A stretch of DNA of 64,000 nt, from positions 2,688,001 to 2,752,000 of the forward strand of contig OY970218.1 of NCBI GenBank assembly GCA_963713975.1. Reading direction: 5' to 3'. Below, one piece after another: positions 11,540-26,593 of the stretch (position 1 is the first letter of the stretch; each line of letters begins with the position of its first letter). The stretch comes from an uncultured Chloroflexia bacterium. GTDB lineage: Bacteria > Chloroflexota > Limnocylindria > Limnocylindrales > CSP1-4. The notes beneath the pieces are model-generated. The model did no database searches. It had not been told where the DNA came from and saw nothing but the letters and a program-made list of their open reading frames with translations. A program made the translations under genes and the position numbers.

Positions 11540-11659
11540 CCTCGGTCGACCGCCCCTCGGGCGCCGCTCGCCCTCGCCGGCGCGACCGCCTCGGGTTGCG
11601 CTGGCCACGCTGGCCCCCGGTGCTCCACTCCGTCTGCCGCACCCGCTAGCATCGGCGTG

Positions 11660-13192
11660 ATGAGCAGCCGCATCCGGCACCTTCTCCCCGTCGTGGCGGT
11701 GGTCGGCGCCTCCCTCGTCGTCGCAACCGTGGCGGTGGCCGTGCTCGAGACCACCCTCGGCATGGACAACGCCTCGTCCGCGTACCTCGTGGCCGTGGTC
11801 GCGGTCGCGCTGCTGGTCGGGACCGGGGGCGCCATCGTCACGGCCGTCGGATCGGCCGCCCTCTACAACGTCCTGTTCACCGAGCCACGCTATACCTTCG
11901 AGATCCACGAGCCGGGCGTGCTGCTCAGCGTGGTGCTCCTCCTGTTCGTGGGTGTCGTCGTCGGGCAGCTTGCCGCGCTCCAGCGCCAGCGGGCCGAGGC
12001 TGCCACGGCGCGCGAGCACGAGGCCCGTGCCCTGTTCGGGGTCAGCCGGTCACTGGCCACCCGCAACTCCATCGGGGAGGCACTCAGCGCCATCCTCGAC
12101 GTGCTGGTCACCGAAGCCGGGCTGGAGCGGGCATGGGTCGGGATCGGGCCGGATCCGGCGGTGGAGACGGTGGCTGCCGACACCGGCGATGGCCGTCCCC
12201 CGACCGCGCCCGGCCGGCTGCGGGTGCTCCAGCGCACCCCGGGTGACGAGCCCGCCCGCTGGGTGCTGGTGCAGCGACCCGGTGTGGCCGCCAGGTCGCC
12301 GGGTGCCGTGGACACCTACCGGGTCCGCATCGAGGCGAGCGGGGAGCCTCAGGGATCTATCTGGGCGACCCGTGCGCGGGAGCCCGGGGAACCGGATCCG
12401 GTCCAGAGCCGGCTGCTCGTGGCAGTCGCGGACCAGGTCGGGCAGGCGATCATGCACGATCGTGCGGCGGACCAGTCGCGGGCAGCGGACGTCGCGCACC
12501 AGAGCGACGCGCTCAAGTCGGCACTGCTGCAGTCCGTGTCGCACGACCTGCGGACGCCGCTGGCCACGATCCGCGCCGCGGCAGGTGGCCTTCGTCCGGG
12601 CAGCGCGCTGTCGGACGACGACAGGAGGGCCAGCGCAGATGCGATCGAGCGGGAGGTCGAGTACCTCAACCGGCTGGTGACCAATCTCCTCGACCTGTCG
12701 CGGATCGAGGCCGGGGCACTCCGGGCGCAGCGTGAGCTGTTCGATCTCGATGACCTCCTCGCCCGCTCCCTGGACAGCGTTCGCACCCGCCTCGACGGAC
12801 GGTCGCTGGAGACCGGCCTGCGGGCCTCGCCTGTCGAGGTCGACGCGGTCTTCGTCGACGAGGCAGTGACCAATCTCCTCGACAACGCGATCAAGTACAC
12901 GCCGGAAGGATCCCGGATCCGGGTCACAGCGCGGGATGTCGGGCCGCAGCTGGTCAGGCTCACCGTGGAGGACGATGGACCGGGGGTGCCCGACGAGGTG
13001 CTGGGCCGGCTGTTCGAGAAGTTCTACCGGGTGCCGGCCGGCCGCCGCCGGTCGAGGGAGGGAACGGGAATCGGGCTCGCGGTCACCCGCGGCCTCGTGG
13101 AGGCGACAGGGGGCACCGTGGTGGCGCGCCGCAGCGAGCTCGGCGGGCTCGCCGTGGACATCGACCTCCCGTCCCGCGAGGTCCCGGGCTGA
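11660..13192 (+). CDS. KdpD-like sensor histidine kinase (4 TM + GAF + HisKA + HATPase; no N-terminal KdpD/Usp domains)
   Basis: YNVLFTEPRYTF, SALLQSVSHDLRTPL, NLLDLSRIEAG, NAIKY and GTGIGL motifs. Confidence 0.9.
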   Translation: MSSRIRHLLPVVAVVGASLVVATVAVAVLETTLGMDNASSAYLVAVVAVALLVGTGGAIVTAVGSAALYNVLFTEPRYTFEIHEPGVLLSVVLLLFVGVVVGQLAALQRQRAEAATAREHEARALFGVSRSLATRNSIGEALSAILDVLVTEAGLERAWVGIGPDPAVETVAADTGDGRPPTAPGRLRVLQRTPGDEPARWVLVQRPGVAARSPGAVDTYRVRIEASGEPQGSIWATRAREPGEPDPVQSRLLVAVADQVGQAIMHDRAADQSRAADVAHQSDALKSALLQSVSHDLRTPLATIRAAAGGLRPGSALSDDDRRASADAIEREVEYLNRLVTNLLDLSRIEAGALRAQRELFDLDDLLARSLDSVRTRLDGRSLETGLRASPVEVDAVFVDEAVTNLLDNAIKYTPEGSRIRVTARDVGPQLVRLTVEDDGPGVPDEVLGRLFEKFYRVPAGRRRSREGTGIGLAVTRGLVEATGGTVVARRSELGGLAVDIDLPSREVPG

Positions 13193-13935
13193 TGCACCAC
13201 CCCGGACCGGGCCCCACGATCCTCGTGGTCGAGGACGACACCGAGACGCGATCCGCGCTCGTGCGAGAGCTGATCGCGGGCGGGTATGGGGTCGTGGAAG
13301 CCGCGGACGGGCGCAGTGCCCTGGAGCGGTGGGCCGCGCGCCGGCCGGACCTCGTGCTCCTCGACCTGGGGCTGCCCGACATCGACGGCCTGCAGGTCGT
13401 GGCCACCATCCGCCGCGAGGCGGCCACGCCGATCGTGATCCTCTCCGGCCGCTACGAGGAGCGCGAGAAGGTGGAGGCGCTCGACCGCGGCGCCGACGAC
13501 TACGTGACCAAGCCGTTCGGCGTGGACGAGCTCAGGGCCCGGTTGCGCGTCGCGCTGCGCCGGGCTGCCGGTCCCGGGGGAGACGCCGCGGGCCGGATCA
13601 CGGTGGGGTCACTGGTCCTCGACGTGGTCGGCCACGAGGTCCGGGTAGCAGGACGCCCACTCGACCTCACGCCGCGTGAGTTCGAGCTCCTGCGGGTGCT
13701 GCTCATGCACCGCGGTCGCGTGGCGACCAAGGGCCGGTTGCTGCGGGCCGTCTGGGGAGAGGCCTACCAGGGCGAGGACAGCTACATCTACGTACACGTG
13801 AGCCAGCTCCGCCGCAAGCTCGCCGCCGCCGATCCCGATGGCGGCCTGGGGACGCTGATCCTCACCGAGCCCGGCGTCGGGTACCGCATCCGTGATGACC
13901 CGGCCACGGGCAGCGTGGCGGACGAGGTCCTTTAG
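13192..13935 (+). CDS. KdpE-like OmpR-family response regulator
   Basis: LLDLGLPD, EKVEALDRGADDYVTKPF and LILTEPGVGYR motifs. Confidence 0.92.
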   Translation: MHHPGPGPTILVVEDDTETRSALVRELIAGGYGVVEAADGRSALERWAARRPDLVLLDLGLPDIDGLQVVATIRREAATPIVILSGRYEEREKVEALDRGADDYVTKPFGVDELRARLRVALRRAAGPGGDAAGRITVGSLVLDVVGHEVRVAGRPLDLTPREFELLRVLLMHRGRVATKGRLLRAVWGEAYQGEDSYIYVHVSQLRRKLAAADPDGGLGTLILTEPGVGYRIRDDPATGSVADEVL

Positions 13936-14003
13936 GGAAACCATAGGCCACCGGATCCGAGTCGCAACCGTCCCCTCTTGGCGCGCCGGCGGATGCTGGT
14001 GGC

Positions 14004-14252
14004 ATGGAAACCGCCGTCGAGGTCATCGGCCGCTCCGCGCCCGCCTGGGCTGGGGAGGAGCGACTGGTCCGCGAGGCCATCCTGATGGTCGCGTCGCAGG
14101 CGGCACCCCGCGTCCTCGTCGCCGGGATCGTCTTCGGGGAGCTGATCCTGGACACGTGCAAGCGCGCGGCGCTCGAAGCCGGCGTTCGCGTGGTCCCACG
14201 AACCACCGCAAGGGAGGATCGGCTCGACATCGTCGTCGAAGCCATTCGCTGA
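14004..14252 (+). CDS. hypothetical 82-aa protein
   Basis: Good codon usage; GATGCT -10-like element 6 nt before the ATG. Confidence 0.55.
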   Translation: METAVEVIGRSAPAWAGEERLVREAILMVASQAAPRVLVAGIVFGELILDTCKRAALEAGVRVVPRTTAREDRLDIVVEAIR

Positions 14253-14319
14253 TGCCCGACTGCCCGACAACCCCGCTCGGAGAGCCTGACTCCGAGCCAC
14301 TCCAGCTCTGGACGGCGTC

Positions 14320-16359
14320 GTGATCGGCGGTCGCCGCCCAATCACCGGTCGCAAGCCGGGCGACCGCCGGGTGCGAGTCGATCGCCCCCACGCGCCCTAC
14401 TTCCGGTACACGGGTCCAAACCAGCTGGTGGCCAAGCCGGCTGCCTCGGTGCCGCGGTCTGCGCTGGGCCGCACCGCCCTCCGTTGGAAGTCATGGCTGA
14501 TCGGCCGTCCGCTGGCCACCGAGGAGGAGATCGGCGAACGGCTGTCCAAGCGCCTCGCCCTGCCGATCTTCAGCTCGGATGCGATCTCGTCCTCCGCCTA
14601 CGCGACCGAGGAGATCCTGCGCGTCCTGGTGCTCGCCGGGGCCGGGGCTCTGCTGGTCTCCGTCGAGATCGCGGCCGCAATCTCGATCCTGCTGGTCGTC
14701 GTCGCGATCTCCTACCGCCAGGTCTGCAACGCGTTCCCGGGCGGAGGGGGCGCCTACGCGGTCGCGCGCCAGGAGCTGCGCCCGATCCTCGGCCTGGTCG
14801 CGGCATCCGCCCTGCTCATCGACTACGTGATGACCGTGGCCGTGTCCACGTCGTCCGCCATGGACCAGCTGATCTCCGTCGCACCCGGGCTGGATGTCGT
14901 CCGGCTGGAGGTCGCGGTCGCCGTGATCGCCCTGATCACGATCGCCAACCTGCGTGGCCTGCGGGAGTCGGGGAACATCTTCGCCGTCCCCACCTACGTG
15001 TTCGTGGCCATGGCCCTGGTCATCATCGCGTCCGGGATGGTGCACATCGCAACCGGCACGGTCGTGCCCATGCCCCCCCAGGCCGAGGCCATGTCCTACG
15101 GGACCCAGACGCTCGGCCTGGTGCTCATCCTGCGCGCATTTGCCAGCGGCTCCGTGGCCCTGACCGGCGTCGAGGCCATCGCCAACGGCGTTCCCGCCTT
15201 CAAGCCCCCGGAGGCCAGGAACGCCGGCAACACCCTGCTCGCCATGGCCGTCCTCCTGGCGGTCCTGTTCATCGGGATCACGGTCGTCGCCCGCGCCTAC
15301 GACATCGTCCCGTCCGAGGCGCTGTCCGGCGGACCGACGGTCATCGCCCTCGTGGCGCAGACCGCGTTTGGGGCCACCAGCCCGCTGTACTACGTCTTCC
15401 AGGTCGCGACCGCGCTGATCCTGTTTCTGGCGGCGAACACCAGCTTCAACGCCTTCCCGCGCCTGGCGGCGATCCTGGCCCACGATGGCTACTTCCCGCG
15501 CCAGTTCTCGTTCCGCGGCGACCGGCTCGCGTACAGCTGGGGGATCATCGCCCTCGCCGCCATCGCGGCCGGGATCTACCTCATCTTCCGGGGCAACACG
15601 TCGCACCTGATCCCGCTCTACTCCGTCGGGGTGTTCGTGTGCTTCACCCTGAGCCAGAGCGGCATGGTCATGCACTGGTTCCGCGGCCGCCAGGCCGGCT
15701 GGCGGTGGCGACTCGCGATCAACGCCAGCGGCGCCCTGATGACGTTGGTCGTGCTCGTGATCGTGCTCACGGAGAAGTTCGAGCACGGGGCGTTCGTGGT
15801 CGCGATCCTCATCCCGGTGATGGTCGGTGCGATGCTGTTCATCAACCGCCAGTACGCGGCCTCTCGGCGGCAGCTCGCGATCGACCCGGGCTACGTCCTG
15901 CCGCCGCCCAGCCGTGAGCAGCGCGCGATCGTGCCGGTGCCGGCCCTCAATCGTGCCGTGGTCCGCGCGATCAACACCGCCCGCTCGATCACCGGTGACG
16001 TGAGCGCGGTGTTCATCAGCGAGGACCCGGAGGCGTCGGCGCGGATGCGGGCGCGCTGGGAGCGGCAGGTTCCGGACGTGCCGCTGGTGATCGTCGAGAG
16101 CCCGTATCGCGCCCTCTCGGGGCCGCTCATGGCGTACCTGGACGTGCTGGACCGGGCCTGGCCGCCGGAGAAGGCGGAGCCGATCACCTTTGTCGTGGTG
16201 CCCGAGTACGTGGCCCGGCACTGGTGGGAGCGGATCCTGTACAACCAGTCCGCCCGACGGCTGCGCTCGGTCCTCCTTGGTCGCCCGCACACCGTGGTGG
16301 TGGACGTGCCGTACCGGCGGGACGACCAGCCGGAGGCATCCGCGATCGAGGTGGAGTAG
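14320..16359 (+). CDS. APC family permease, KimA/YdaO-type (putative K+ transporter)
   Basis: FSSDAISSSAYATEE, GGGAY, DYVMTVAVS, NLRG.RESG, ALTGVEAIANG, ANTSF..FP, LIPLYSVGVF and ESPYR motifs. Confidence 0.9.
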   Translation: MIGGRRPITGRKPGDRRVRVDRPHAPYFRYTGPNQLVAKPAASVPRSALGRTALRWKSWLIGRPLATEEEIGERLSKRLALPIFSSDAISSSAYATEEILRVLVLAGAGALLVSVEIAAAISILLVVVAISYRQVCNAFPGGGGAYAVARQELRPILGLVAASALLIDYVMTVAVSTSSAMDQLISVAPGLDVVRLEVAVAVIALITIANLRGLRESGNIFAVPTYVFVAMALVIIASGMVHIATGTVVPMPPQAEAMSYGTQTLGLVLILRAFASGSVALTGVEAIANGVPAFKPPEARNAGNTLLAMAVLLAVLFIGITVVARAYDIVPSEALSGGPTVIALVAQTAFGATSPLYYVFQVATALILFLAANTSFNAFPRLAAILAHDGYFPRQFSFRGDRLAYSWGIIALAAIAAGIYLIFRGNTSHLIPLYSVGVFVCFTLSQSGMVMHWFRGRQAGWRWRLAINASGALMTLVVLVIVLTEKFEHGAFVVAILIPVMVGAMLFINRQYAASRRQLAIDPGYVLPPPSREQRAIVPVPALNRAVVRAINTARSITGDVSAVFISEDPEASARMRARWERQVPDVPLVIVESPYRALSGPLMAYLDVLDRAWPPEKAEPITFVVVPEYVARHWWERILYNQSARRLRSVLLGRPHTVVVDVPYRRDDQPEASAIEVE

Positions 16360-16634
16360 GGCCGGGCTTCGGGGAGGCGGCGAGCCTGCGAGCGCACGCC
16401 ACGCGGGGCGGACAGGCCGGAGCGGCCCCCATACGGCAGGCCGGGAGGCAGGCCCGGCCCCCTTCCATACGGGCCCATTCGAGGTGCCCTTCGCCATGCA
16501 GCGCGGCGACCTCTGGTACGTGGTTGGACCCACCCGCATCCCCCAAGATCAGTACCGGCGTCCCCTTGTTCTATGGGCGCGGCCGCCGCAGGGCCTCCGG
16601 CACCTGCCCGTCGCGCCAAGCAGTCGAGTGAGTC

Positions 16635-17855
16635 ATGATGCGCGACCAGGGTCTCTATGCCGCGCTCATCGAGCGCGGGATGACCCGCAGGTCGTTCCTC
16701 AAGTTCTCCGCTGCCATGACCGCAGCGCTGGCGATTCCGGCCTCGTATGCGCCACGCATCGCGGAAGGCCTCACCACCGCTCCGCGCCTCCCCGTCATCT
16801 GGGTGCGCGGGCAGACCTGCGGGGGCAACACCGAGGCGCTCCTGCGGACCTCGAATCCCACGGTCTCCTCGCTCCTGCTGGACACCCTTTCGGTGGAGTA
16901 CCACGAGTCCCTGCTCGCGACGGCCGGAGCCGCGAGCGACGTCGCCCGCACGTCGGCGATGGAGGCCTACCCGGACGGCTACATCGCGGTGATCGAGGGC
17001 GCTATCCCGAACGGCGCGGACGGTGGCTACTGCCTCGTGGGTGGCCGCCCCGTGGCGGACGTGGCGCGCGAGGTCTGCGACGGCGCCCTGGCCACGATCG
17101 CGGTCGGAGCCTGCGCGTTCGACGGCGGTGCACCTGCAGCGAGCGGCGGCCTTACCGATGCCGGCGGCGTCCGTCGCGTGGTCGGCGACTCCACCCTGAT
17201 CACGCTGCCGGGCTGCCCGATGAACGTGCTCAACCTGACCGCCGTGATCGTCCACTACCTGACCCTCCGCGAGTGGCCGCCGCTTGACCCGATGGGCCGG
17301 CCCCTGGCTGCCTACGGGAACCTGCTCCACAACCAGTGCGAGCGACGGCCGCACTTCGAGTTCGGCGAGTTCGCCCTGTCCTGGGGCGACGAGGGAGCCC
17401 AGCGCGGCTGGTGCCTGTACAAGGTGGGCTGCAAGGGTCCGGAGACGATGGCCAACTGCCCCACCGTCCGCTACGGCGACGGGGTCAGCTGGAACGTGCG
17501 CGCCGGCCACGGGTGCGCAGGCTGCGTGGCGCCCGACTTCTGGGATGCGATGGGCCCGGCCTACCTTCGGCTGCCGTCGCCGGTGCCCTTCCTGCCCAAC
17601 ATGACGGTTGACGTGGTGGGGGCAGCGGCGGTCGGTGCCGTGGCCCTCGTTGCCGGAGCGCACGCGGTGGGCATGGGTGCCCGCTACAAGCGGCGGGCGC
17701 GCATCGAGCGTCGCGAGGCCCTTGCGGGCGCCGATGGCACGACCGCCGCCCATGGCACGGCCGATGCCGATGCTGCGACCGACGCCGATGCCATGGACAC
17801 GCCGGAGCCCGTCGTGCCCACCGGCGATGGCCCCACCCCGGCCGGGGAGCGCTGA
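16635..17855 (+). CDS. [NiFe]-hydrogenase-like small subunit (Tat signal, C-terminal TM anchor)
   Basis: TRRSFLK Tat motif; GAC, PGCP, HNQCERR, CLYKVGCKGP, NCP and GHGCAGC; proximal motif reads CGGN. Confidence 0.92.
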   Translation: MMRDQGLYAALIERGMTRRSFLKFSAAMTAALAIPASYAPRIAEGLTTAPRLPVIWVRGQTCGGNTEALLRTSNPTVSSLLLDTLSVEYHESLLATAGAASDVARTSAMEAYPDGYIAVIEGAIPNGADGGYCLVGGRPVADVAREVCDGALATIAVGACAFDGGAPAASGGLTDAGGVRRVVGDSTLITLPGCPMNVLNLTAVIVHYLTLREWPPLDPMGRPLAAYGNLLHNQCERRPHFEFGEFALSWGDEGAQRGWCLYKVGCKGPETMANCPTVRYGDGVSWNVRAGHGCAGCVAPDFWDAMGPAYLRLPSPVPFLPNMTVDVVGAAAVGAVALVAGAHAVGMGARYKRRARIERREALAGADGTTAAHGTADADAATDADAMDTPEPVVPTGDGPTPAGER

Positions 17856-17856
17856 G

Positions 17857-19632
17857 ATGGCTCGTATCGTCATCGACCCGGTCACCCGTGCCGGCGGCCA
17901 GCTGCGGGTGGAGGCGGACGTGACCGGCGGTCGCGTGACCGGGGCATGGTCCTCCGCCACCATGTTCAGGGGCATGGAGAACGTCCTGCGCGGTCGGGAC
18001 CCACGCGATGCCTGGCTCCTGGCACAGCGCGTCTGCGGCACCTGCACCGGGGTCCACGCCCTCGCGTCGGTCCGGGCCGTGGAGCAGGCGCTGGGCATCA
18101 CCATCCCCACCAACGCCCGCCTCATCCGAAACATCCTTGCCGGCACCCTGGTCGTCCGCGATCACGTCATGCGCCTGTACCAGGAGGGACTTCCGGACTG
18201 GGTCGACACGTCGGCCGCCGTCTCCGCAGACGTGACGGCAACGTCCCGCCTGGCGCGCGCAGGCAGCCCCTGGCCCAACGCCGGAGCGGACTACTTCCAG
18301 GGCGTGCGAGACCGCCTGACGGCGATCGCCACATCGGGCCAGCCCGGCCCGTTCGCGAGCGCCTGGCCGGGTCACCCCGCCTATCGCCTGAGTCCGGAGC
18401 AGAGCCTCATCCTCGTGGCCCACGTGCTGGAGGCGTTCGACTGGCAGAGCGACTTCATGCGCATCCACGCCCTGCTGGGCGGCAAGGACCCGCACCCGCA
18501 GACCTACCTCGTCGGCGGCATGGCGCTAGTGCCACCGTGGGGCGGTCCGGCTGCGTCGCAGACGCGCCAGCACCCGCAGGTCCCGGACCGCAACGCCCCG
18601 CTCGCGCTGAGCAGCGATGGCATCGACCTGATGCGCCGGTTGGTCGCCGGGGCCAGGACGTTCGTCGAGCAGGTCTATGACCCGGACGTGCGGATGCTCC
18701 TCGACGCCTACCCGGAGTGGATCTCGACCGGCGCGGGACCCGGCAACTTCCTGTCCTTCGGCGAGTTCCCGCTGGATGACGAGGCCGGCGCGGCGAGGCT
18801 CCTTCCCGGGGGACGGCTGATGGACGGCAACCTGGAGCGTGCCGAGCCAGTGGCCGAGACCGCGGTGGCCGAGAGTGCCTCGCACGCCTGGTACACCTAC
18901 GGCACCGGCGACGCCTCGCTGCGCCGCCCGGCCGAGGGGGAGACCGCCCCCGACTTCACCGTCCCGGAGCTGCCGCTCAAGGAGCTCGACGTTCGCGGGA
19001 AGTACACGTGGGTCAAGGCAGCCCGCTATGACGGGCGCGTGATGGAGACCGGCCCTCTCGCCCGCGTACTGGTGGCCGCCGCCAACGGCCAGGCCGACAT
19101 CCGCCAGGCGCTCGGTGAGAGGCTCACGGACCTCGGGCTCGAGTCCGCGGCACTGACCGGTGCGCTCGCGAGGACCCTCGCACGCGCGATCGAGGCCGAG
19201 GTCGTCGTCCGCAAGCTGGATGGCTGGCTGTGGGAGCTCCGGTCGAACCTGGCGACGGGCGACGTGTCCGTGACCAGCATCGAGCTCTGGGATCCCGTCG
19301 CGTGGCCGTCGGAGGCCGTCGGCTTCTCGCTCGGCGAGGGCCCGCGTGGGTCGGTTGGCCACTGGATCCGGATCAAGGACGCCGTCATCGACCACTACCA
19401 GCTGCTGGACGGCTCGACGTGGAACGCGTCGCCCCGCGACGGCCTCGGTGTCGCCGGCCCGATGGAATCCGCGCTCGCGGGCCTCGACGTTGCCGACCCC
19501 GCGATGCCAGTGGAGCTGCTCCGCGTTATCCACTCCTTCGCGCCGTGCGCCGCGTGTGCCGCTCACGTCTTCGACCCGGGGGCTGCCTCCCGACGCCCTG
19601 GCCCTGCCCATCCCGCGGAGGGGATCCGATGA
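17857..19632 (+). CDS. group 1 [NiFe]-hydrogenase-like large subunit with divergent active-site residues
   Basis: L1 QRVCGTCTGVH; L2 SFAPCAACAAH plus a 21-aa tail; GPRG, GGKDPHP and METGPLAR motifs. Confidence 0.9.
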   Translation: MARIVIDPVTRAGGQLRVEADVTGGRVTGAWSSATMFRGMENVLRGRDPRDAWLLAQRVCGTCTGVHALASVRAVEQALGITIPTNARLIRNILAGTLVVRDHVMRLYQEGLPDWVDTSAAVSADVTATSRLARAGSPWPNAGADYFQGVRDRLTAIATSGQPGPFASAWPGHPAYRLSPEQSLILVAHVLEAFDWQSDFMRIHALLGGKDPHPQTYLVGGMALVPPWGGPAASQTRQHPQVPDRNAPLALSSDGIDLMRRLVAGARTFVEQVYDPDVRMLLDAYPEWISTGAGPGNFLSFGEFPLDDEAGAARLLPGGRLMDGNLERAEPVAETAVAESASHAWYTYGTGDASLRRPAEGETAPDFTVPELPLKELDVRGKYTWVKAARYDGRVMETGPLARVLVAAANGQADIRQALGERLTDLGLESAALTGALARTLARAIEAEVVVRKLDGWLWELRSNLATGDVSVTSIELWDPVAWPSEAVGFSLGEGPRGSVGHWIRIKDAVIDHYQLLDGSTWNASPRDGLGVAGPMESALAGLDVADPAMPVELLRVIHSFAPCAACAAHVFDPGAASRRPGPAHPAEGIR

Positions 19633-20480
19633 CGATCGTCGCCCAGGAGCCTGCCGCCACGGTCCCGGAAGACCCGGCCGGCACGACCGCGTCCACCGTT
19701 GTGGACGCGGCTCAGGTGTCACCCGGACCCGATGCCGGCCACGGGGACGCGACTGCGGGGCACGGGGCGCACGAGATCGAGAACCCGGACCAGCGGGTCC
19801 GCCTGATGGTGTGGCAGATCCCGGTGCGGGTCACCCACTGGGTCACGGCCAGCTGCATCGTGGTGCTGAGCCTGACCGGCGGCTACATCGCGGACCCGTT
19901 CCTCATCCCGGCCGGCGGCGGCGTGATGTCCACCGTCCGCCTGATCCACATCATCGCCGCCCTCACGTTCCTGCTATCGGGCCTGGTGCGCACGTACTGG
20001 CTGCTGGCGGGGAACCGCTTCTCGCGATGGACGGCGTTCATCCCGACCTCGCGCTACCAGGCCACTGAGCTCTTCCGCCAGGCCGGGTTCTACGGCTTCG
20101 TTCGGCCCGAGATCCCCAAGGTGCTGGGCCACAACCAGCTGGCCGCGACCGCGTACCTCGTGCTGTTCGGGCTGCTGCTGGTCGAGACCGTCACCGGTTT
20201 CGCCCTCGATGGCCTGATGGGTGCCGAGCCGGGCGCCACGCTGTTCGGCTGGCTGCGCGAGCTCGTTGGCGCCCAGCAGCTGCGTCTCATCCATCACCTG
20301 GCGATGTGGCTGATCCTGGCGATCGCCCTGTTCCACGTGTACAGCTGCGTCCTGGTGGATCACATCGAGCACAACGGCCTCATCTCCAGCATCGTCAGCG
20401 GCTTCAAGTTCCCGACCCGCGAGGAGGTCGTCGAGTCGCGCGACGGCGGACCGGAGCTGCTGGACCGGGTGGAGCCGTGA
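19629..20480 (+). CDS. hydrogenase b-type cytochrome subunit (HyaC-like)
   Basis: VW..PVRVTHW, RLIH, GHN, RLIHH and FHVY heme His motifs; SIVSGFK. Confidence 0.9.
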   Translation: MTIVAQEPAATVPEDPAGTTASTVVDAAQVSPGPDAGHGDATAGHGAHEIENPDQRVRLMVWQIPVRVTHWVTASCIVVLSLTGGYIADPFLIPAGGGVMSTVRLIHIIAALTFLLSGLVRTYWLLAGNRFSRWTAFIPTSRYQATELFRQAGFYGFVRPEIPKVLGHNQLAATAYLVLFGLLLVETVTGFALDGLMGAEPGATLFGWLRELVGAQQLRLIHHLAMWLILAIALFHVYSCVLVDHIEHNGLISSIVSGFKFPTREEVVESRDGGPELLDRVEP

Positions 20481-21028
20481 CGGTCACGCAACGGAACCTG
20501 GTCGTAGTCGGGGTGGGCAACGTGCTGCTGGGCGATGACGCTGCCGGTGTCCGGGTGGTCGAGGGTCTCGAGGCCCTGGCTGGACGTGACCCGCATGCGT
20601 TGCCGCCGGAGACGCGGCTCGTGGATGGCGGGACGCTGGGCACGGACCTCCTGCCGGTCATCGATGGCGCATCCGGCGTGGTGCTGGTCGATGCCGTCCG
20701 CCTGGGTGGGGCGGCTGGATCGGTGAGCGTGCTGCATGAGGACGAGATCGATGCTCTGGGCGGATTGGCCGACGGCGGCAGCACCGGTGCCGTGGGCGAG
20801 CTCGTGGCGACCGCCCGCTTCCTGGGACGGCTGACCGGGCCGCTATCGCTGGTGGGTATCGAGGTGGCAGAGGTCGAGCCCGGGCTGGGCCTCTCCGGCG
20901 CCGTCGACCGGGCGCTGCCGGTCGCGATCGAGGCCGTCCGCGGCGAGCTGCGCCGCATGGGCGGGTCGTGGCAACCAGCCATGGATGGTGGCGCCAGCAA
21001 CGCACGAATGGCAGGGGCGACGGCATGA
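20477..21028 (+). CDS. hydrogenase maturation protease (HyaD-like)
   Basis: VGNVLLGDDAAG, VDGGT, VDAV and GLS..V motifs; the usual SxH His is absent. Confidence 0.88.
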   Translation: MTVTQRNLVVVGVGNVLLGDDAAGVRVVEGLEALAGRDPHALPPETRLVDGGTLGTDLLPVIDGASGVVLVDAVRLGGAAGSVSVLHEDEIDALGGLADGGSTGAVGELVATARFLGRLTGPLSLVGIEVAEVEPGLGLSGAVDRALPVAIEAVRGELRRMGGSWQPAMDGGASNARMAGATA

Positions 21029-21768
21029 GATCAAGATTCGACCGCACGCTGCGGCTGCTGATCCTCGCGAACATCCTCGTGGTCGCGCTGCTGGCCGGCA
21101 CGATGGTGCTGGACTGGCTGCGGGTGATCCCTGCCCGCGGCACGGCCGACGCAACGACCGCCCCCGCCGTGTCGCCCACGCCCGAGACGATGCAGATGGG
21201 CCTCGCCCACATCCCGACCTCCAACAGCTGCCTCCTCTGCCACCAGAGTGGCGGTGCCGCCGAGCTCAAGACCATCCCGGCAATCGGGCACCAGCTCGAA
21301 GGGTGGACGGCGTGCCTGACCTGCCATACCGACGAGTCGCTTGGCCGCCAGGCACCGGGGCACGTCGGGATCGCGGAGACCGAATGCCTCAACTGCCACA
21401 AGGTTGCCCAGGACGGCCCGGCGATCACCCAGGCCCACGCCGACCTTCACGAGGCCTGTCTCGACTGCCATGGCAGCGTCGCACACCTGCCGTCGAGCAT
21501 GGTGGGCCGCAACCAGGACGAGTGCTGGCTGTGCCACAAACCGAACCCTTCGCCGCCGCCGACCAAGCCGCATCCCGACCCGCAGAACCTGACCTGCCGC
21601 TCGTGTCACCAGTCCGCGGAGGCGGGTGCGCTGCCGATCGACCACGCCCTGCGCGAGGACTCCACCTGCACCCTGTGCCACGACATCGACGGCTCGGCCG
21701 TGCCGAGCCCAAGTGCCGTGGAGCCCGACGGCGACGAGCTTCCATCGGCGAGCCCGAGTGGCGGCTGA
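21025..21768 (+). CDS. membrane-anchored heptaheme c-type cytochrome
   Basis: N-terminal TM helix; seven CxxCH motifs (CLLCH, CLTCH, CLNCH, CLDCH, CWLCH, CRSCH, CTLCH); ATGA coupling. Confidence 0.92.
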   Translation: MRSRFDRTLRLLILANILVVALLAGTMVLDWLRVIPARGTADATTAPAVSPTPETMQMGLAHIPTSNSCLLCHQSGGAAELKTIPAIGHQLEGWTACLTCHTDESLGRQAPGHVGIAETECLNCHKVAQDGPAITQAHADLHEACLDCHGSVAHLPSSMVGRNQDECWLCHKPNPSPPPTKPHPDPQNLTCRSCHQSAEAGALPIDHALREDSTCTLCHDIDGSAVPSPSAVEPDGDELPSASPSGG

Positions 21769-21807
21769 CGGATCCCGCAGCGATGCCGCATACGCGATGA
21801 TGGGGTC

Positions 21808-22263
21808 ATGCTGGACACGCTGATCCTCACCTGGGAGGACCTCGACGGTCTCGTCGCGCGCCTCGCCGGGCGGGTCGGGCGTGAACATGACCTGGTCCTC
21901 GCCATCACCCGGGGTGGGCTGGTCCCGGCCGGGATGCTCGCCTACCGCCTCGACCTTCGCGAGATCCTCGTTGCGGGAGCCATCTTCTACCGGCCCGAGG
22001 GCGGCACCCACCCTGCCCCCGTGATCGGTCACTTTCCGGCGGCCTCGCTCCTCGAGGGCCAGCGGGTCCTGGTCGTGGATGAGGTGTGGGAGACCGGCGA
22101 GACCATGACGGAGGTCCTGGCGAGGGTGCGGGCCGCCGGCGGCCAACCCGTCTCGGCCGTCATCCACTACAAGCCGGGCCGGTCCCGGGTGGCGGGTGCG
22201 CCGGACCACCATGCCGCGACGCTCGAGGGCTGGGTCACCTACCCGTACAAGGCCGGCGGCTGA
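21808..22263 (+). CDS. type I phosphoribosyltransferase (xanthine/purine PRT-like)
   Basis: AITRGGLVP, VLVVDEVWETGET PRPP loop, W..YPY. Confidence 0.88.
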   Translation: MLDTLILTWEDLDGLVARLAGRVGREHDLVLAITRGGLVPAGMLAYRLDLREILVAGAIFYRPEGGTHPAPVIGHFPAASLLEGQRVLVVDEVWETGETMTEVLARVRAAGGQPVSAVIHYKPGRSRVAGAPDHHAATLEGWVTYPYKAGG

Positions 22264-22275
22264 CCGGCGCCTGGA

Positions 22276-22292
22276 TCTCAGCGGCGTCTCAG
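22276..22292 (+). promoter_or_regulatory. MprA-type direct-repeat box 1
   Basis: TCTCAG-cggcg-TCTCAG upstream of the YceI gene. Confidence 0.8.
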
Positions 22293-22341
22293 CAACGTAT
22301 GGTTGTCTGAGCGACCGAGTCACCAGCCGCAGGAGTGCCCA

Positions 22342-23121
22342 ATGTCCACCCAGCGTCCCACGTCCCGGCGGGGCCCGGTCCTCGCCGTCATCGTGCTCGC
22401 CGTCATCGTCGTCGCTGTGGCGGGCATCTGGTACCTGTTCCTGCGCCCCGGGGGTCCCGCACCGGTGTCGCTGGGAACCCCGGCTCCGGACGTGCCTGCA
22501 GCGACGGCCGCGCCCGCCGCGTCCCCGGGGCCGGCGACAGGTGCACCGGGGACCGTCGCCCCCGACGGGATCACAGGGACCTGGGCCGTCGACCCGTCTG
22601 TCGGGTCGTTCGGCGACTTCTCCGGCTCCTTCGCCGGGTACCGCGTCCAGGAGACGCTGGCCAACATTGGGGCGACGGAGGCGGTGGGACGGACACCGGA
22701 CGTCACGGGCTCGATCACGATCGACGACACCACCATCACCGCCGCCGAGCTGACCGTGGATCTCACCACGCTGCAGAGCGACGAGCGGTTCCGCGACGGC
22801 CAGCTGCGTCGCCAGGCCCTCGAGACCGGCGAGTTCCCCACGGCCATCTTCACCCTCACCGAGCCGGTCGACATCGGATCGGTGCCGGCCGAGGGCACGA
22901 CCGTCGAGGTCACCGCGGCAGGGGATCTCACGCTTCACGGAGTCACGCAGGCGGTCCAGGTGCCGCTTCAGGCGCGCCTGCAGGGCGGCGTGGTCACGGT
23001 TGCCGGGTCGATTCCCATCGTCTTTGCCGACTACGGCATCGCGAAGCCCGAGGCGATGGTGGTGCTGTCCGTGGAGGACCACGGCGTGATGGAGGTCCAG
23101 CTCCAGCTCACGCGAAGCTGA
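22342..23121 (+). CDS. YceI family protein with N-terminal TM anchor
   Basis: AGGAG RBS; GYRVQE, AVGRT, LQSD..RD, FPTA.F and GDLTLHGVT motifs. Confidence 0.9.
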   Translation: MSTQRPTSRRGPVLAVIVLAVIVVAVAGIWYLFLRPGGPAPVSLGTPAPDVPAATAAPAASPGPATGAPGTVAPDGITGTWAVDPSVGSFGDFSGSFAGYRVQETLANIGATEAVGRTPDVTGSITIDDTTITAAELTVDLTTLQSDERFRDGQLRRQALETGEFPTAIFTLTEPVDIGSVPAEGTTVEVTAAGDLTLHGVTQAVQVPLQARLQGGVVTVAGSIPIVFADYGIAKPEAMVVLSVEDHGVMEVQLQLTRS

Positions 23122-23125
23122 GCGC

Positions 23126-23142
23126 TCTCAGGCGGCTCTCAG
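23126..23142 (+). promoter_or_regulatory. MprA-type direct-repeat box 2
   Basis: TCTCAG-gcggc-TCTCAG upstream of the GT39 gene. Confidence 0.8.
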
Positions 23143-23241
23143 GGAGTGCCGTTTGAATAGCCGTAGGTCGCGGCGTTCCCGGTGGCATCTCCTCCCCACC
23201 GAGAGCGCCGCGCCCTGCTGATCAGCGGGAGCCCATCACCG

Positions 23242-25137
23242 GTGACGACATCCATCGCAGCGGGCCCGGACATCGTCCGGGACGATCCCCGGCTGGCCCT
23301 GGCCTGGCGCCTCGCCCCGCTGGCGCTGGCCGTGCTGGCCGCCATCGCCTACGGTCTGAACCTGACCGTCAGCGGGTACGCGAACACCTACTACTCGGCG
23401 GCCGCCCAGGCCGGGTCGCAGAGCTGGTCCGCGATGCTGTTCGGGTCCCTGGACGCGGCCGGGTTCATCACGGTTGACAAGCCGCCTGTCTCCCTGTGGG
23501 CCCAGGGCCTCTCGGTGCGGATCCTGGGCCTCGGTCCCTGGGCGGTGCTCCTGCCGCAGGCACTCGCGGGGGTCGCCGCGGTGGTCATCCTCCACGACGC
23601 CGTCCGCCGCCAGCTCGGCCGCGAGGCGGCCCTCATCGCAGGGGTCGCATTCGCGCTCACCCCCGTCGCCGTCCTGGTCTTCCGCTACAACAACCCCGAC
23701 GCGGTTCTGGTACTGCTGCTCGTGGCCGCGGCATGGGCGCTGGTCCGGGGCCTGGAGGACGGCCGTCTCCGCTGGCCGCTGGTCGCCGCGGTGCTGATCG
23801 GGCTGGCCTTCCTCACCAAGTTCCTCCAGGCGTACCTCGTGCTGCCCGCGTTCCTCGCGACCTATCTCGTTGCCGCGCCGGGCGGGATCGGGCGAAGGAT
23901 CGCCGTGCTGGCGGCCTCCGCCGTCGCCGTGCTGGCCTCGTCGTTGTGGTGGGTGGCGCTGGTGGACCTGCTGCCGGCGTCATCGCGCCCCTACATCGGC
24001 GGCTCCCGGGACAACACCGCGCTCGACCTCCTGCTGGGCTACGACGGCCTCGGCCGGATCTTCGGAGGCGGAGGTAGCGCAGCAGCGTCCGGCGGGAGGC
24101 CAGGGGGTGGCGCCATATTTGGAGGCAGCGTGGGCCTGCTGCGGATGTTCAATGCCGAGTGGGCGGGCCAGGTGGGCTGGCTGCTGCCGGCGGCACTGAT
24201 CGGGCTGGCGACCGGCCTCGTCACGCGCCTGCGGGCACCCCGCACGGACCCGCGACGGGCAGCCTTCCTCCTGTGGGGCACCTGGGCCGTCGTCCACATC
24301 CTGGTGTTCTCGCTGATGAGCGGCATCGTGCACCCGTACTACGCGGTTGCCATCGCACCGGCAGCGGCGGCGCTCACCGGTGGCGGCGTCGTGGAGCTGT
24401 GGAGACCCCGAGCCCGCTTCGCGCCGGCGGGCCTCGTGCTGGGCGGGATGATCGTGGTGACGGCGTGGTGGTGCTGGCAGGTGCTGGACCGGACGCCGGA
24501 GTTCTGGCCCGGCGCCGGCGTGGCGGCGTTCTTCGTGGCCGTCTCGGCCGGGATCCTGGTCGCCGTCACGTCCCTGGTGGACGACCCAAGATCGCCGGGG
24601 ATTGGGTGGATCGCCCTGGTGCTGGGGGTTGGCGCCATGCTCGTCGGGCCCGTGCTCTACGCCGGCGAGACCATGGGACGGGCGATCGCGGGTGGCGACC
24701 CCGCGGCGGGCCCGAGCACGAGCCGTCCTGGCGGCTTCCCGGGCGGCCCAGGCGGCTTCCCGGGTGACGCGGCGGGCACGGACGAGCAACTCGTGTCGTG
24801 GCTCCTCGAGCACCAGGGCACGGAGACGTGGCTGGTGGCGGTCGGCTCGGCGAACCAGGCCGGGCCGCTCCAGCTGGCGTCGGGCGTGCCGGTCATGGCC
24901 ATGGGTGGCTTCATGGGCTCCGATCCCGCGCCAACGCTGGAGCAGCTCCAGGCGTACGTGCGGGATGGCAGCCTGCGGTTCGTCCTGCTCGGCGGTCGGG
25001 ACGGCGGCCCAGGCGGGTTCTTCGGCGGGGACGGGCAGGGGAGTGTGGCCGGCGAGCGATCCGACTGGGTGACGACGGCCTGCAGTCCCGTGGACGGCCT
25101 GTCCGCGACGCTCTACGACTGCCGCGGGGCCGGCTGA
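23242..25137 (+). CDS. GT-C/GT39 (ArnT/PMT, YkcB-like) membrane glycosyltransferase
   Basis: N.YYSAA, FITVDKPP, RYNNPD, RPYIGGS, GY.GL.R, HPYY and MAMGGF.GSDP motifs; start could be 23182. Confidence 0.88.
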   Translation: MTTSIAAGPDIVRDDPRLALAWRLAPLALAVLAAIAYGLNLTVSGYANTYYSAAAQAGSQSWSAMLFGSLDAAGFITVDKPPVSLWAQGLSVRILGLGPWAVLLPQALAGVAAVVILHDAVRRQLGREAALIAGVAFALTPVAVLVFRYNNPDAVLVLLLVAAAWALVRGLEDGRLRWPLVAAVLIGLAFLTKFLQAYLVLPAFLATYLVAAPGGIGRRIAVLAASAVAVLASSLWWVALVDLLPASSRPYIGGSRDNTALDLLLGYDGLGRIFGGGGSAAASGGRPGGGAIFGGSVGLLRMFNAEWAGQVGWLLPAALIGLATGLVTRLRAPRTDPRRAAFLLWGTWAVVHILVFSLMSGIVHPYYAVAIAPAAAALTGGGVVELWRPRARFAPAGLVLGGMIVVTAWWCWQVLDRTPEFWPGAGVAAFFVAVSAGILVAVTSLVDDPRSPGIGWIALVLGVGAMLVGPVLYAGETMGRAIAGGDPAAGPSTSRPGGFPGGPGGFPGDAAGTDEQLVSWLLEHQGTETWLVAVGSANQAGPLQLASGVPVMAMGGFMGSDPAPTLEQLQAYVRDGSLRFVLLGGRDGGPGGFFGGDGQGSVAGERSDWVTTACSPVDGLSATLYDCRGAG

Positions 25138-25180
25138 CGCGTCCCGAGGTGGCGTGCGGAGTCCTGGGCCCGACGCTGGT

Positions 25181-25197
25181 TCTCAGGGTGCTCTCAT
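25181..25197 (+). promoter_or_regulatory. MprA-type direct-repeat box 3
   Basis: TCTCAG-ggtgc-TCTCAT; GACGAT -10-like element begins 10 nt downstream. Confidence 0.78.
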
Positions 25198-25219
25198 CGC
25201 GCAGCCCGACGATCCTGCC

Positions 25220-26593
25220 GTGAGCGCAACGCCCTCCATCCGCCCGCGCCCGGTCCCGCTGCCCCGCACCTGGGGAGTCCATGCGCGCGACATCGTCGCC
25301 CTGCTGGTGGGCAACGGCATCTTCATCGTCCTGATGTGGGTTCGCCACGGAGCCCTCAACGAGTTCGGCTCGCTCGCCGCCGGCCTCACCGCGCTTGGAC
25401 AGCTGGCGGCCCTCGAGGGCACCTACCTCGCACTGGTGGGGATCGTCCTCATGGCCCGCAGCCCCTGGCTGGACGAGGCGTTCGGGATGGACCGGCTCGC
25501 CTGGGCTCACCGCTGGCTCGGGTTCGCAGCGGTGTGGCTGATCGGTGCCCACCTGGTGCTGACCGTCACGGGGTACGCCTTTGGCGACGGGCAGGACCCG
25601 ATCACGGAGCTGGTCACGCTGGTCATGACCTACCCGTTCGTGCTCCTGGGTCTCGTGGGCTTCGTGCTGTTCGTGATGCTGGGCGTCACCTCCGTGCGGG
25701 CCGCACGCCGGCGCGTGTCGTACGAGACCTGGTTCTTCCTCCACCTGTACGCGTACCTCGCGATCGCTCTCGCGTTCCTGCACCAGCTCCATGCCGGCGC
25801 GGACTTCATCCACGACCAGCTCGCCGCGATCTACTGGATCAGCCTGTACGTGATCGCCGCGCTCCTCGTTCTCGTCTTCCGCGTCGGCCAGCCCCTGGCC
25901 ACCTCGCTTCGCCACCGCCTGCGGGTCTCGGCCGTCGTGCCCGAGACGGCCGGGGTGACCTCGATCTACCTCGCCGGGCGCGATCTTGACCGGCTGCCCG
26001 TTCGCTCCGGCCAGTACTTCGTCATCCGCTTCCTCACCCGCGATGGCTGGTGGCGCGGCCACCCGTACTCGCTCTCGTCGGCGCCCAACGGCAACTGGCT
26101 CCGGATCACCGTCAAGGCCCTGGGCGACGACAGCACGCGGCTGCAGCGCGTGCCCGTGGGAACGCCGGTGTTCGTGGAAGGTCCCTACGGCGTCCTCACC
26201 GGCGCCCGCCGGACGCGGCCCAGGGTGACGTTCATCGCGGGCGGCATCGGGATTGCCCCGCTGCGGGCGCTGCTGGAGTCGCTCCCCGCCGCCCGCGGCG
26301 ATCTCACCCTGCTCTACCGGGCCCGCCACGAGTCGGACGTCGTGTTCCGCGAGGAGCTGCGCCTGCTTGCCGCTCATCGCGGCGCAACGGTCCATCTCCT
26401 GCTCGGCCGGCGTGGCGCAACGGGGTCCGAGAATCCCCTCGGGAGCGAGTCGCTCGCCCGTCTCGTGCCCGACATCAGCGAGCACGAGGTCTACGTCTGC
26501 GGGCCCGCCGAGATGATGCAGGCGACCGAGGCGTCGCTCCGGCGATTGGGCGTGCCGGACCGGCACATCCACGCCGAGCGGTTCGCCTACTGA
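25220..26593 (+). CDS. ferric-reductase-like transmembrane domain plus FAD/NAD-binding oxidoreductase
   Basis: TM His residues (HRWLG, GAH, WFFLH, FLHQ); HPYSLS, EGPYG, AGGIGIAP, YVCGP and HAERF motifs. Confidence 0.9.
   Translation: MSATPSIRPRPVPLPRTWGVHARDIVALLVGNGIFIVLMWVRHGALNEFGSLAAGLTALGQLAALEGTYLALVGIVLMARSPWLDEAFGMDRLAWAHRWLGFAAVWLIGAHLVLTVTGYAFGDGQDPITELVTLVMTYPFVLLGLVGFVLFVMLGVTSVRAARRRVSYETWFFLHLYAYLAIALAFLHQLHAGADFIHDQLAAIYWISLYVIAALLVLVFRVGQPLATSLRHRLRVSAVVPETAGVTSIYLAGRDLDRLPVRSGQYFVIRFLTRDGWWRGHPYSLSSAPNGNWLRITVKALGDDSTRLQRVPVGTPVFVEGPYGVLTGARRTRPRVTFIAGGIGIAPLRALLESLPAARGDLTLLYRARHESDVVFREELRLLAAHRGATVHLLLGRRGATGSENPLGSESLARLVPDISEHEVYVCGPAEMMQATEASLRRLGVPDRHIHAERFAY

Follow-up and report, generated by a model that had tools for sequence, protein, structure and literature searches.

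A group-1-derived [NiFe] hydrogenase operon of Chloroflexota without the proton-gate glutamate

Can a [NiFe] hydrogenase lose the glutamate of its proton gate and remain a hydrogenase? This question is raised by a five-gene operon at positions 16635–21768 of a 64,000-nt stretch from an uncultured Chloroflexia bacterium (contig OY970218.1); we call the whole stretch the window, and all coordinates are positions in it unless a contig is named. The initial annotation, made from the letters alone, proposed that the operon encodes a maintained, group-1-derived redox complex exported by the twin-arginine translocation (Tat) pathway, and not a set of randomly decaying genes. We found that the operon belongs to a single clade of hydrogenase loci from which the gate glutamate and its partners in the small subunit are missing, while the ligands of the Ni-Fe site are kept. 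On this sequence evidence the operon may encode a diverged but working, membrane-bound and outward-facing [NiFe] uptake hydrogenase, a reading that we favour but consider evenly balanced.

The operon and the changes in its catalytic subunits

The five open reading frames (ORFs) lie on the + strand, as do all the features within them placed below by coordinates, and each is full length and free of internal stops. They encode a [NiFe]-hydrogenase small subunit with a Tat signal and a C-terminal membrane anchor (406 residues, 16635–17855; Pfam and TIGR00391), the large subunit (591 residues, 17857–19632; PF00374), a dihaem b-type cytochrome subunit (283 residues, 19629–20480; TIGR02125), a maturation endopeptidase of the HybD/HyaD family (183 residues, 20477–21028; the HycI Pfam model and TIGR00072), and a membrane-anchored heptahaem cytochrome c (247 residues, 21025–21768; seven CxxCH motifs). 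The last gene is taken to start at the ATG at 21025; its longest ORF opens at a GTG at 20968. In order, the junctions are TGAgATG, with a 1-bp gap, and ATGA, GTGA and ATGA overlaps. The G+C content at third codon positions (GC3) is 0.81–0.93 across the five genes and resembles that of the neighbouring genes (0.88–0.94), so that the earlier description of full-length, tightly coupled genes with normal codon usage holds.

The large subunit covers the full PF00374 (NiFeSe_Hases) model (556.8 bits, positions 1–508 of 508). Its best solved relative is Allochromatium vinosum 3myr_B (E 2.8e-147), the Salmonella hydrogenase-5 (Hyd-5) chain 4c3o_A matches at E 7.3e-141, and 54 distinct PDB sequences match at E ≤ 1e-20. 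Residue positions were read off alignments to the hya and hyb products of Escherichia coli K-12 and are numbered as in hydrogenase-1 (Hyd-1; HyaB and mature HyaA) and HybD. Compared with HyaB, C76, C79, C576, C579, D118, H119, P508, R509 and H582 are unchanged, and the Mg-site Glu and the cleavage-site His are retained; E28, H30 and D574 are replaced by Gly, Gln and Ala. The R-x-E-G-H motif with the gate Glu is therefore absent, TRAGGQ (17884–17901) standing in place of TRIEGH. Both N-terminal Ni-Fe cysteines are present in RVCGTCTGVH (18028–18057), with Val78 between them changed to Thr. The segment RDHVMRLYQEGLPDW (18157–18201) holds Asp118 and His119 and no longer has Leu126 or His 122, 125 and 127, all of them part of the canonical His-rich motif. 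Towards the C-terminus, EGPRGSVGH (19336–19362) preserves Pro508 and Arg509 and carries Ala507 to Gly and Leu512 to Val, column comparison gives Val530 to Asp and Pro531 to Gly/Ala at LLDGSTWN (19402–19425), and SFAPCAACAAH (19534–19566) contains the C-terminal cysteines and the cleavage-site His beside the Asp574 to Ala change. After H570, in window numbering, follows an extension of 21 residues ending in E-G-I-R (19567–19629). Finally, an insertion of about 14 extra residues (PPWGGP...HPQVP...) opposite a gap in 3myr_B and 4c3o_A follows GGKDPHPQTYLVGGM (18532–18600).

The small subunit matches the Pfam models NiFe_hyd_SSU_C, Oxidored_q6 and TAT_signal, and scores 363.2 bits with TIGR00391 (hydA; cut-off 179.5). 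It has a twin-arginine motif, TRRSFLKF (16683–16706), and a hydrophobic stretch at residues 322–349. Ten of the 11 canonical Fe-S ligand positions are present. By alignment to HyaA and HybO, the proximal-cluster motif WVRGQTCGGN (16800–16829) retains C17 and shows H13R, E16T, T18G and C20N; the remaining proximal, medial and distal ligands are intact. The initial annotation had described replacements of residues for proton transfer, for the active-site canopy and for protease metal binding, in three separate genes. The first are confirmed by E28 to Gly in the large subunit and by E16 to Thr and T18 to Gly in the small subunit. For the canopy, the loss of Asp574 stands, but the arginine is retained and only this one canopy residue has changed. 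In the small subunit C20N is not special: canonical relatives share Asn or Asp at this position (Cys-Ala-Gly-Asn/Asp), and we rejected it as a novelty of the clade.

A clade lacking the gate glutamate, with its partner proteins and genomes

A search of 5.8 billion proteins gave 4184 matches to the large subunit at E ≤ 1e-50 among 8000 candidates scored. The best 120 of these, hereafter the closest 120, are 55–100% identical to it, and 118 are readable at the gate position, two being N-terminally truncated. Glu occurs there in none of the 118, which have Gly (97), Asn (16), Asp (3) or Ser (2); at the Asp574 position the closest 120 have Ala (71), Asn (18), Asp (15), Ser (12) or Gly (2), again with two truncated. 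The three clade members with Asp at the gate (P0053, P0063 and P0072; IDGH or TDGH) are maybe partial reversions and would be useful natural comparators. A locus scan using one genome per species gave 81 rows, namely the best 80 of 596 confirmed relatives and the window: 21 lack the Glu, 59 read IEGH and one was not read by the pattern. Position 28 is Gly in 19, Asn in one and Ser in one of the 21 Glu-less loci, as opposed to Glu in 57/57 canonical relatives, and position 78 is Thr (18), Ser (2) or Val (1) as opposed to Val in 57/57. Identical changes recur in independent assemblies, and a sequencing or assembly artefact was rejected on this ground.

In a maximum-likelihood tree (IQ-TREE quick search, LG+G4) of 79 of the 81 rows with E. 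coli HyaB and HybC, two rows of fewer than 500 residues being omitted, the 21 Glu-less rows form one clade (Shimodaira–Hasegawa-like approximate likelihood ratio test, SH-aLRT, 100), whose stem measures 0.24. This old and large lineage is nested among canonical enzymes of Limnocylindrales and other Chloroflexota, with Roseiflexus, Anaerolineae and Acidobacteriota enzymes further out; in this tree, whose reference enzymes are HyaB and HybC and which holds no references from groups 1a–1c, 1e and 1g–1l, it groups with the Roseiflexus/Acidobacteriaceae-type enzymes relative to those two. The best explanation of the sequences is that the Glu-less lineage arose once, from group-1f-like enzymes inside one Chloroflexota family of Limnocylindria type. 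Among the canonical rows, L048 and L050 lie 324 kb apart on one Terriglobia contig of an acidobacterial genome and are near-identical group-1f-like operons (branch lengths 0 and 0.0018).

The loss reaches beyond the glutamate itself. In the enzyme of Desulfovibrio vulgaris Miyazaki F, Glu34 of the large subunit lies 3.2 Å from the Cys546 thiolate and 2.5 Å from Thr18 of the small subunit, which in turn points at Glu16 of that subunit (PMC10498676). By this geometry the clade lacks all three members of the network. Position 16 of the small subunit is Thr (8), Ala (5), Gly (3), Ser (2) or Asp (2) in 20 clade sequences, as opposed to Asp in 56/56 canonical ones, and D/E16, H210, R211 and N236 are conserved in at least 85% of the canonical small subunits yet almost absent from the clade. 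Thus, the Cys576–Glu28–(Thr18/Glu16 of the small subunit) proton-gate network is removed in every clade member. One clade row, L021, also has Ser at the proximal-cluster ligand Cys149 of its small subunit (LPGSPLN), which reflects either a genuine additional loss or an error in assembly.

The four Ni-Fe cysteines (window C60/C63 and C564/C567, equivalent to HyaB C76/C79/C576/C579) are invariant in the 21 clade sequences. Among the related loci the insertion, PPWGGP...HPxVP, is confined to the clade, WGGP occurs in 119 of the closest 120 proteins, and W228, G229, G230, P231, H239 and P240 are invariant in the clade alignment. Of 19 clade rows read, 18 have a C-terminal extension of 19–21 residues and one gave 0; the extension usually ends in ExxR, and in canonical relatives it is mostly 15–16 residues long. 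An AlphaFold2 model of the large subunit from the 21-row alignment reached a mean predicted local distance difference test (pLDDT) score of 70.1 and a predicted template modelling (pTM) score of 0.79, and its pLDDT is below 50 at the insertion (209–248), the metal-binding loops and the C-terminal extension, so that the model places neither the insertion nor Asp518. One relative has two clade-type large subunits 4.6 kb apart on a single contig (G440:C5, 12314–14053 and 16914–18653), each 51% identical to that of the window, and a third, more distant copy.

The cytochrome b scores 130.6 bits with TIGR02125 (cut-off 121.5), and its His residues at HyaC positions 22, 63, 125, 184 and 198 are invariant in 19/19 clade and 45/45 other sequences. 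The heptahaem cytochrome has a single N-terminal helix (21049–21120) followed by its CxxCH motifs (21229–21681). It matches Pfam Cytochrome_C7 (41 bits) and Cytochrom_c3_2, and passes only generic c7/c3 and paired-CXXCH domain models; it is far below the cut-offs for the named multihaem proteins DmsE of the DmsE/MtrA decahaem type (35.7 vs 192.2), NrfH (22.6 vs 134.2), HmcA (15 vs 400) and NrfB. At E ≤ 0.001 it has 497 database matches, the closest 120 of which span 62–100% identity; 119 of these have seven CxxCH motifs, together with seven further His residues at least 95% conserved, which fits bis-His haems. A heptahaem gene is present in 17/17 clade loci with at least 3.5 kb of downstream sequence and in 0/49 canonical loci. 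This strict co-occurrence upholds the earlier suggestion of a complex linked to both the quinone pool and a multihaem wire. The predicted complex of cytochrome b and the heptahaem protein scored 0.01 against a mark of 0.32 in a run without controls and is not evidence either way. The genome also encodes a 222-residue multihaem paralogue of c7/c3 type (G000:C1:1992900–1993451; L010:18844–19512, − strand), 42% identical over residues 21–183, which adjoins an NrfD-like gene about 7 kb from hypFCDE; second multihaem copies of 34–47% identity occur in many relatives.

The protease exceeds the cut-offs of the HycI Pfam model (51.5 bits vs 23) and of TIGR00072 (100.1 vs 47.45), and scores below that of the hupD subfamily (80.9 vs 151.8). 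Glu16, Asp62 and His93 form the metal-binding triad of HybD. The stretch expected to hold His93, LADGGSTGAVGEL (20765–20803), contains no His, and His is present at this column in 0/15 clade proteases and 47/47 canonical ones. The initial annotation had the metal-binding residues of the protease replaced, which is right for His93; it is the only one of the three ligands that is truly lost.

The window's genome, a single 3.62-Mb contig estimated to be 92% complete, has this operon as its only group-1 hydrogenase, and no canonical group-1 paralogue was found in it. Four other large-subunit-like genes adjoin NuoF/NuoE/HoxU/HoxY-like or complex-I-like genes and look like group 3 and group 4 types. 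The operon's protease is nonetheless the only HycI-family match in the genome. HypF, HypC, HypD and HypE are encoded at 1.980–1.986 Mb and HypA at 2.668 Mb of the contig (G000:C1), the latter beside one cytosolic enzyme. The Hyp genes located all lie outside the window, as the initial annotation had stated; its proposed genome check for hypA–F found HypA, C, D, E and F, and no HypB above the cut-off. The genome also carries two CcsA-type cytochrome c assembly genes, a haem-copper oxidase subunit I and a cytochrome bd. Given the Hyp genes, the CcsA-type genes and the oxidases, the genome can mature the parts of the operon.

The distribution of the operon is patchy. The heptahaem protein is found in 27 of 401 genomes sampled from the class, and is concentrated in the window's family (23/137), in its own genus (9/12) and in one other genus (8/11). 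A large-subunit match at E ≤ 1e-60 occurs in 36 of 151 genomes of the family, and several of these 36 have two. The second copy, fetched from five relatives, four of the same genus, is canonical in all five (IEGH, RICGVC, EAPRG, SFDPC, WLEFQDCAGN), and its accompanying protease bears the His in four; no protease match was found in the fifth. The two types thus coexist as diverged paralogues, each with its own protease, and the window's genome retains only the Glu-less type while the relatives examined carry both.

A working hydrogenase or another redox function

If the operon encodes a working uptake hydrogenase, H2 would be split at a conventional Ni-Fe site of four cysteines beside the pendant arginine. 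Protons could leave through a retained chain of Arg, Asp, water, His and Glu. Its residues in the window, R497, D102, H103 and E446, correspond to A. vinosum R487, D103, H104 and E436 and are invariant in the 21 clade sequences. They might also leave through water in the space freed by Gly13 of the large subunit and the Gly and Thr of the small subunit. Electrons would pass over three Fe-S clusters and the dihaem cytochrome b to the quinone pool, with the clade-specific heptahaem cytochrome c, tethered on the outer face, as a possible second exit or entry. The dedicated protease may have co-evolved with the altered large subunit, losing His93 as the extension became longer (19–21 residues) with a conserved end. 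Studies of model enzymes lend such a scheme some support: in Thiocapsa roseopersicina an E14Q variant kept about 50% of the activity, whereas R487I and D103L abolished it (PMC3325256), and in Hyd-1 E28Q the proton relay is rescued by water or hydroxide that enters next to the substituted side chain (PMC8020662). Asp574 is naturally Ser in [NiFeSe] enzymes (PMC8020662).

Substitution rates indicate that the genes are maintained. Ratios of nonsynonymous to synonymous rates (dN/dS; Nei–Gojobori, 8 pairs, four with the window and four among other clade loci) are 0.09–0.28 for the small subunit, 0.13–0.40 for the large subunit, 0.09–0.26 for cytochrome b and 0.11–0.23 for the heptahaem cytochrome; all five genes are under purifying selection, the protease being the least constrained. 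The orthologous operons we collected share the substitutions throughout the clade (21 of 81 loci; 118/118 readable close proteins) and are under purifying selection, so that neither relaxed selection on this copy nor canonical motifs in its orthologues explain it. The nearest characterised types, represented by the PDB chains compared and by the Roseiflexus and Acidobacteriaceae relatives, all have the canonical residues. The single origin, the conserved substitutions and dN/dS well below 1 bear out the maintained, group-1-derived, Tat-exported complex proposed initially, as does its place as sole group-1 enzyme in a genome carrying HypC, D, E and F.

Several results nevertheless weigh against a working hydrogenase. 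The E25Q variant of the Desulfovibrio fructosovorans enzyme is reportedly inactive. The shell around the active site differs far beyond the gate itself (V78T, variable L126, G503S, A507G, L512V, V530D and P531G/A). These positions belong to a larger set of large-subunit residues that at least 85% of canonical relatives share and the clade almost lacks: I27, E28, V78 (Thr/Ser in 20/21), H122, H125, L126, H127, N227 (to Asp), G503 (to Ser), A507 (to Gly), L512 (to Val), V530 (to Asp, 21/21) and P531 (to Ala/Gly). The protease has lost a metal ligand (His93; relative to HybD it also shows E16 to Asp and retains D62) and has the highest dN/dS of the five genes, 0.30–0.52. No HypB was found above the cut-off in the genome, itself about 92% complete (best 22 bits vs 121); this best match falls inside the window at about 6706–7155. 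Of 201 large-subunit columns at least 95% conserved in the 57 canonical relatives, the clade keeps 145, has switched 7 to a new fixed residue and varies at 49; for the small subunit the figures are 84, 71, 1 and 12, and for cytochrome b 39, 34, 2 and 3. Within the clade, moreover, conservation is lower in the large subunit than in either of the other two core subunits, an order that canonical relatives invert: in 99 clade pairs in the 0.55–0.65 bin of large-subunit identity the small subunit averages 0.65 and cytochrome b 0.73, whereas 913 canonical pairs average 0.62 for the large subunit, 0.52 for the small subunit and 0.35 for cytochrome b. Because the clade represents a single bacterial family and the canonical set spans several phyla, conservation in the clade looks higher than it is, yet the large subunit trends the opposite way. 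Finally, the gate glutamate has been termed a 'universal proton gate' (PMC8020662) and matters in every model enzyme tested.

The large subunit's relaxation compared with its partners keeps non-catalytic options alive. There is some chance, a minor one, that the large subunit is retained mainly as a folded scaffold for the cofactor, or as an H2 site with a slow or regulatory role, and that the selected function is electron transfer among the quinone pool, through cytochrome b, the Fe-S chain and the outward heptahaem protein. The inverted rank of conservation (cytochrome b, small, large subunit in place of large, small, cytochrome b) would follow from it, as would the freeing of 24% of the ancestrally invariant large-subunit columns, the joint loss of the proton gate, the gas-channel gate positions and the protease ligand, and the very strong conservation of the heptahaem protein (62–86% identity among its 119 closest homologues). 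In relatives, the canonical paralogue (5/5 fetched) could do the H2 work; the window's genome, however, has no such paralogue. The identity comparison also sets a narrow clade against a multi-phylum set, and dN/dS of the large subunit still amounts to 0.13–0.40. Most of all, the Ni-Fe cysteines, Arg509, the Mg-site Glu, the cleavage His, the C-terminal extension and the dedicated protease are kept throughout the clade, which is hard to explain without cofactor insertion. In its boldest form, in which the clade no longer turns over hydrogen at all and the hydrogenase chassis has become a quinol-to-heptahaem conduit (or the reverse) with a Ni-Fe subunit that serves as scaffold, senses gas or redox state, or acts catalytically on some other small molecule, the proposal seems doubtful to us.

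A changed chemistry is unlikely. Here the Ni-Fe site, or a site with another metal, would act on a substrate other than H2, for example a small molecule, polar or charged, admitted by a channel that has lost its hydrophobic character, or its catalytic bias or affinity would be strongly altered. In the D. fructosovorans enzyme the gas channel ends close to the active site, and Val74 and Leu122 are located there (10.1101/2025.11.19.689374). By the numbering offset from the cysteines we tentatively equate them with V78 and L126 of Hyd-1, of which the first becomes Thr or Ser in 20/21 clade sequences and the second varies among Ala, Arg, Glu, Ser and Thr. A channel-end position that is not fixed to one residue argues for relaxation and against a new specificity. 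The carboxylate introduced at V530D is fixed in 21/21, two residues before a Ser/Thr that presumably hydrogen-bonds a cyanide ligand; L512 and V530 would correspond to Leu482 and Val500 of the Miyazaki F enzyme, which presumably line the CO pocket, with Ser502 binding a cyanide. The lost protease ligand would also be compatible with altered chemistry, but nothing positive points to another substrate, and both Arg509 and the metal ligands are as in an H2 enzyme.

As for a redundant or decaying copy, in effect a pseudo-enzyme being lost, the conservation data exclude simple decay, and we leave it only a very slight chance. Textbook residues are lost in three genes, selection on the protease is relaxed (0.30–0.52), and the operon is patchy, its heptahaem marker occurring in 27/401 class genomes. 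But the five window genes have no stop or frameshift, and their dN/dS is far below 1. The architecture recurs in all clade loci with sufficient flanking sequence (17/17) and in no fewer than 118 database clusters, with identities as low as 55%, and the clade has fixed positions of its own (V530D in 21/21; the WGGP insertion, 119/120). The 51–86% identities between clade members exclude very recent copies.

Around the operon, the upstream genes (11657–16359) encode a DUF4118/HisKA/HATPase sensor kinase with a KdpD-like N-terminus, an OmpR-type response regulator and a 679-residue APC-family permease. Their synteny is limited to the closest clade loci: L015–L017 share the kinase and regulator, and the permease is found additionally in L018 and L022. 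Downstream (21808–26593) lie genes for a 151-residue phosphoribosyltransferase (77–89% identical in the 8 matches listed of 11), a YceI-like protein, a PMT_2/YkcB-type glycosyltransferase and a ferric-reductase-like FAD/NAD membrane protein. These genes reappear 3' of the operon in many clade loci; the pattern looks like lineage synteny, and a functional tie to the operon was rejected. The ferric-reductase-like gene sits close to the haem wire and may merit attention. A promoter and terminator scan of 16200–22400 gave 0 sites of either kind, and a search of sequencing runs with the whole operon listed none, including none with RNA.

Relation to known hydrogenases

The lineage offers a natural test of how protons and electrons move in [NiFe] hydrogenases, in soil-type Chloroflexota. 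The gate glutamate is held to be universal (PMC8020662), yet here it has been removed naturally together with its small-subunit partners, and the arginine-centred route is retained. Activity of the enzyme would show that protons do not need the textbook path, and would make the clade a naturally occurring scaffold on which proton exit, catalytic bias and behaviour towards O2 can be dissected. If it is inactive, a hydrogenase has been recruited elsewhere and gene-based estimates of soil H2 oxidisers need correcting; were the conversion to an electron conduit true, surveys counting these genes as H2 oxidisers would be mistaken about an entire soil lineage. A His-less protease paired with an altered large subunit bears on substrate recognition by maturation proteases. 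Our literature search, outside which most subscription-journal papers lay, met with no account of a group-1 clade lacking the Glu, nor of a heptahaem cytochrome encoded in a hydrogenase operon. The accessible text of a survey of the Chloroflexi supergroup reports groups 1h and 1l, 1f variants and 3c–3e, and not this clade (10.1101/2021.08.23.457424); its hydrogenase tree and tables may contain Glu-less sequences unremarked.

The nearest named relatives are the group 1f enzymes of Roseiflexus and Acidobacterium/Acidobacteriaceae, with 47–51% large-subunit identity; the Acidobacterium and Roseiflexus enzymes have been assigned to that group (PMC5900883; 10.1101/457697). They share with the clade the order of small subunit, large subunit, cytochrome b and protease, and the unusual proximal-cluster Cys-x-Gly-Asn and CA(F/W)DGG motifs. 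The canonical group-1f-like relatives differ in having IEGH (57/57), CGVC, EAPRG, SFDPC and the protease His (47/47), and no heptahaem gene (0/49). Relative to group 1f, the clade has lost Glu28 and Asp16 of the small subunit and has gained the insertion of about 14 residues, V530D, extra length in the C-terminal extension, and a fifth gene in the operon.

E. coli Hyd-1 (HyaABCD) and Salmonella Hyd-5, of group 1d, are likewise Tat-exported heterodimers with a dihaem cytochrome b and a dedicated HyaD protease, and solved group 1d chains match the window's large subunit at E 5e-130 to 7e-141. Hyd-1 differs in E28, H30, D574, H13 and E16 of the small subunit and the six-cysteine ligation of its proximal cluster, and the window's proteins fall far below the Hyd-1/Hyd-2 NCBIfam equivalog cut-offs (433 vs 1101; 299 vs 659). 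The Hyn enzymes of A. vinosum and T. roseopersicina (group 1e, 3MYR), the best solved match, still have the gate Glu, and their partners are Isp1 and Isp2, not a cytochrome b and a heptahaem cytochrome. All four residues of the Arg487–Asp103–water–His104–Glu436 proton route, proposed and tested in a Hyn-type enzyme (PMC3325256), are invariant in the clade.

On the outer side, the window's enzyme resembles the periplasmic [NiFe] and [NiFeSe] enzymes of Desulfovibrio, which also work with a multihaem bis-His cytochrome of c3/c7 type, cytochrome c3 being their physiological partner. The [NiFeSe] enzymes also lack the canopy Asp (PMC8020662). The Desulfovibrio cytochrome is soluble and usually tetrahaem, and the enzyme has no cytochrome b, whereas that of the window is a membrane-tethered heptahaem protein encoded beside a cytochrome b in one operon, and would be an undescribed electron exit for a cytochrome-b-linked hydrogenase.

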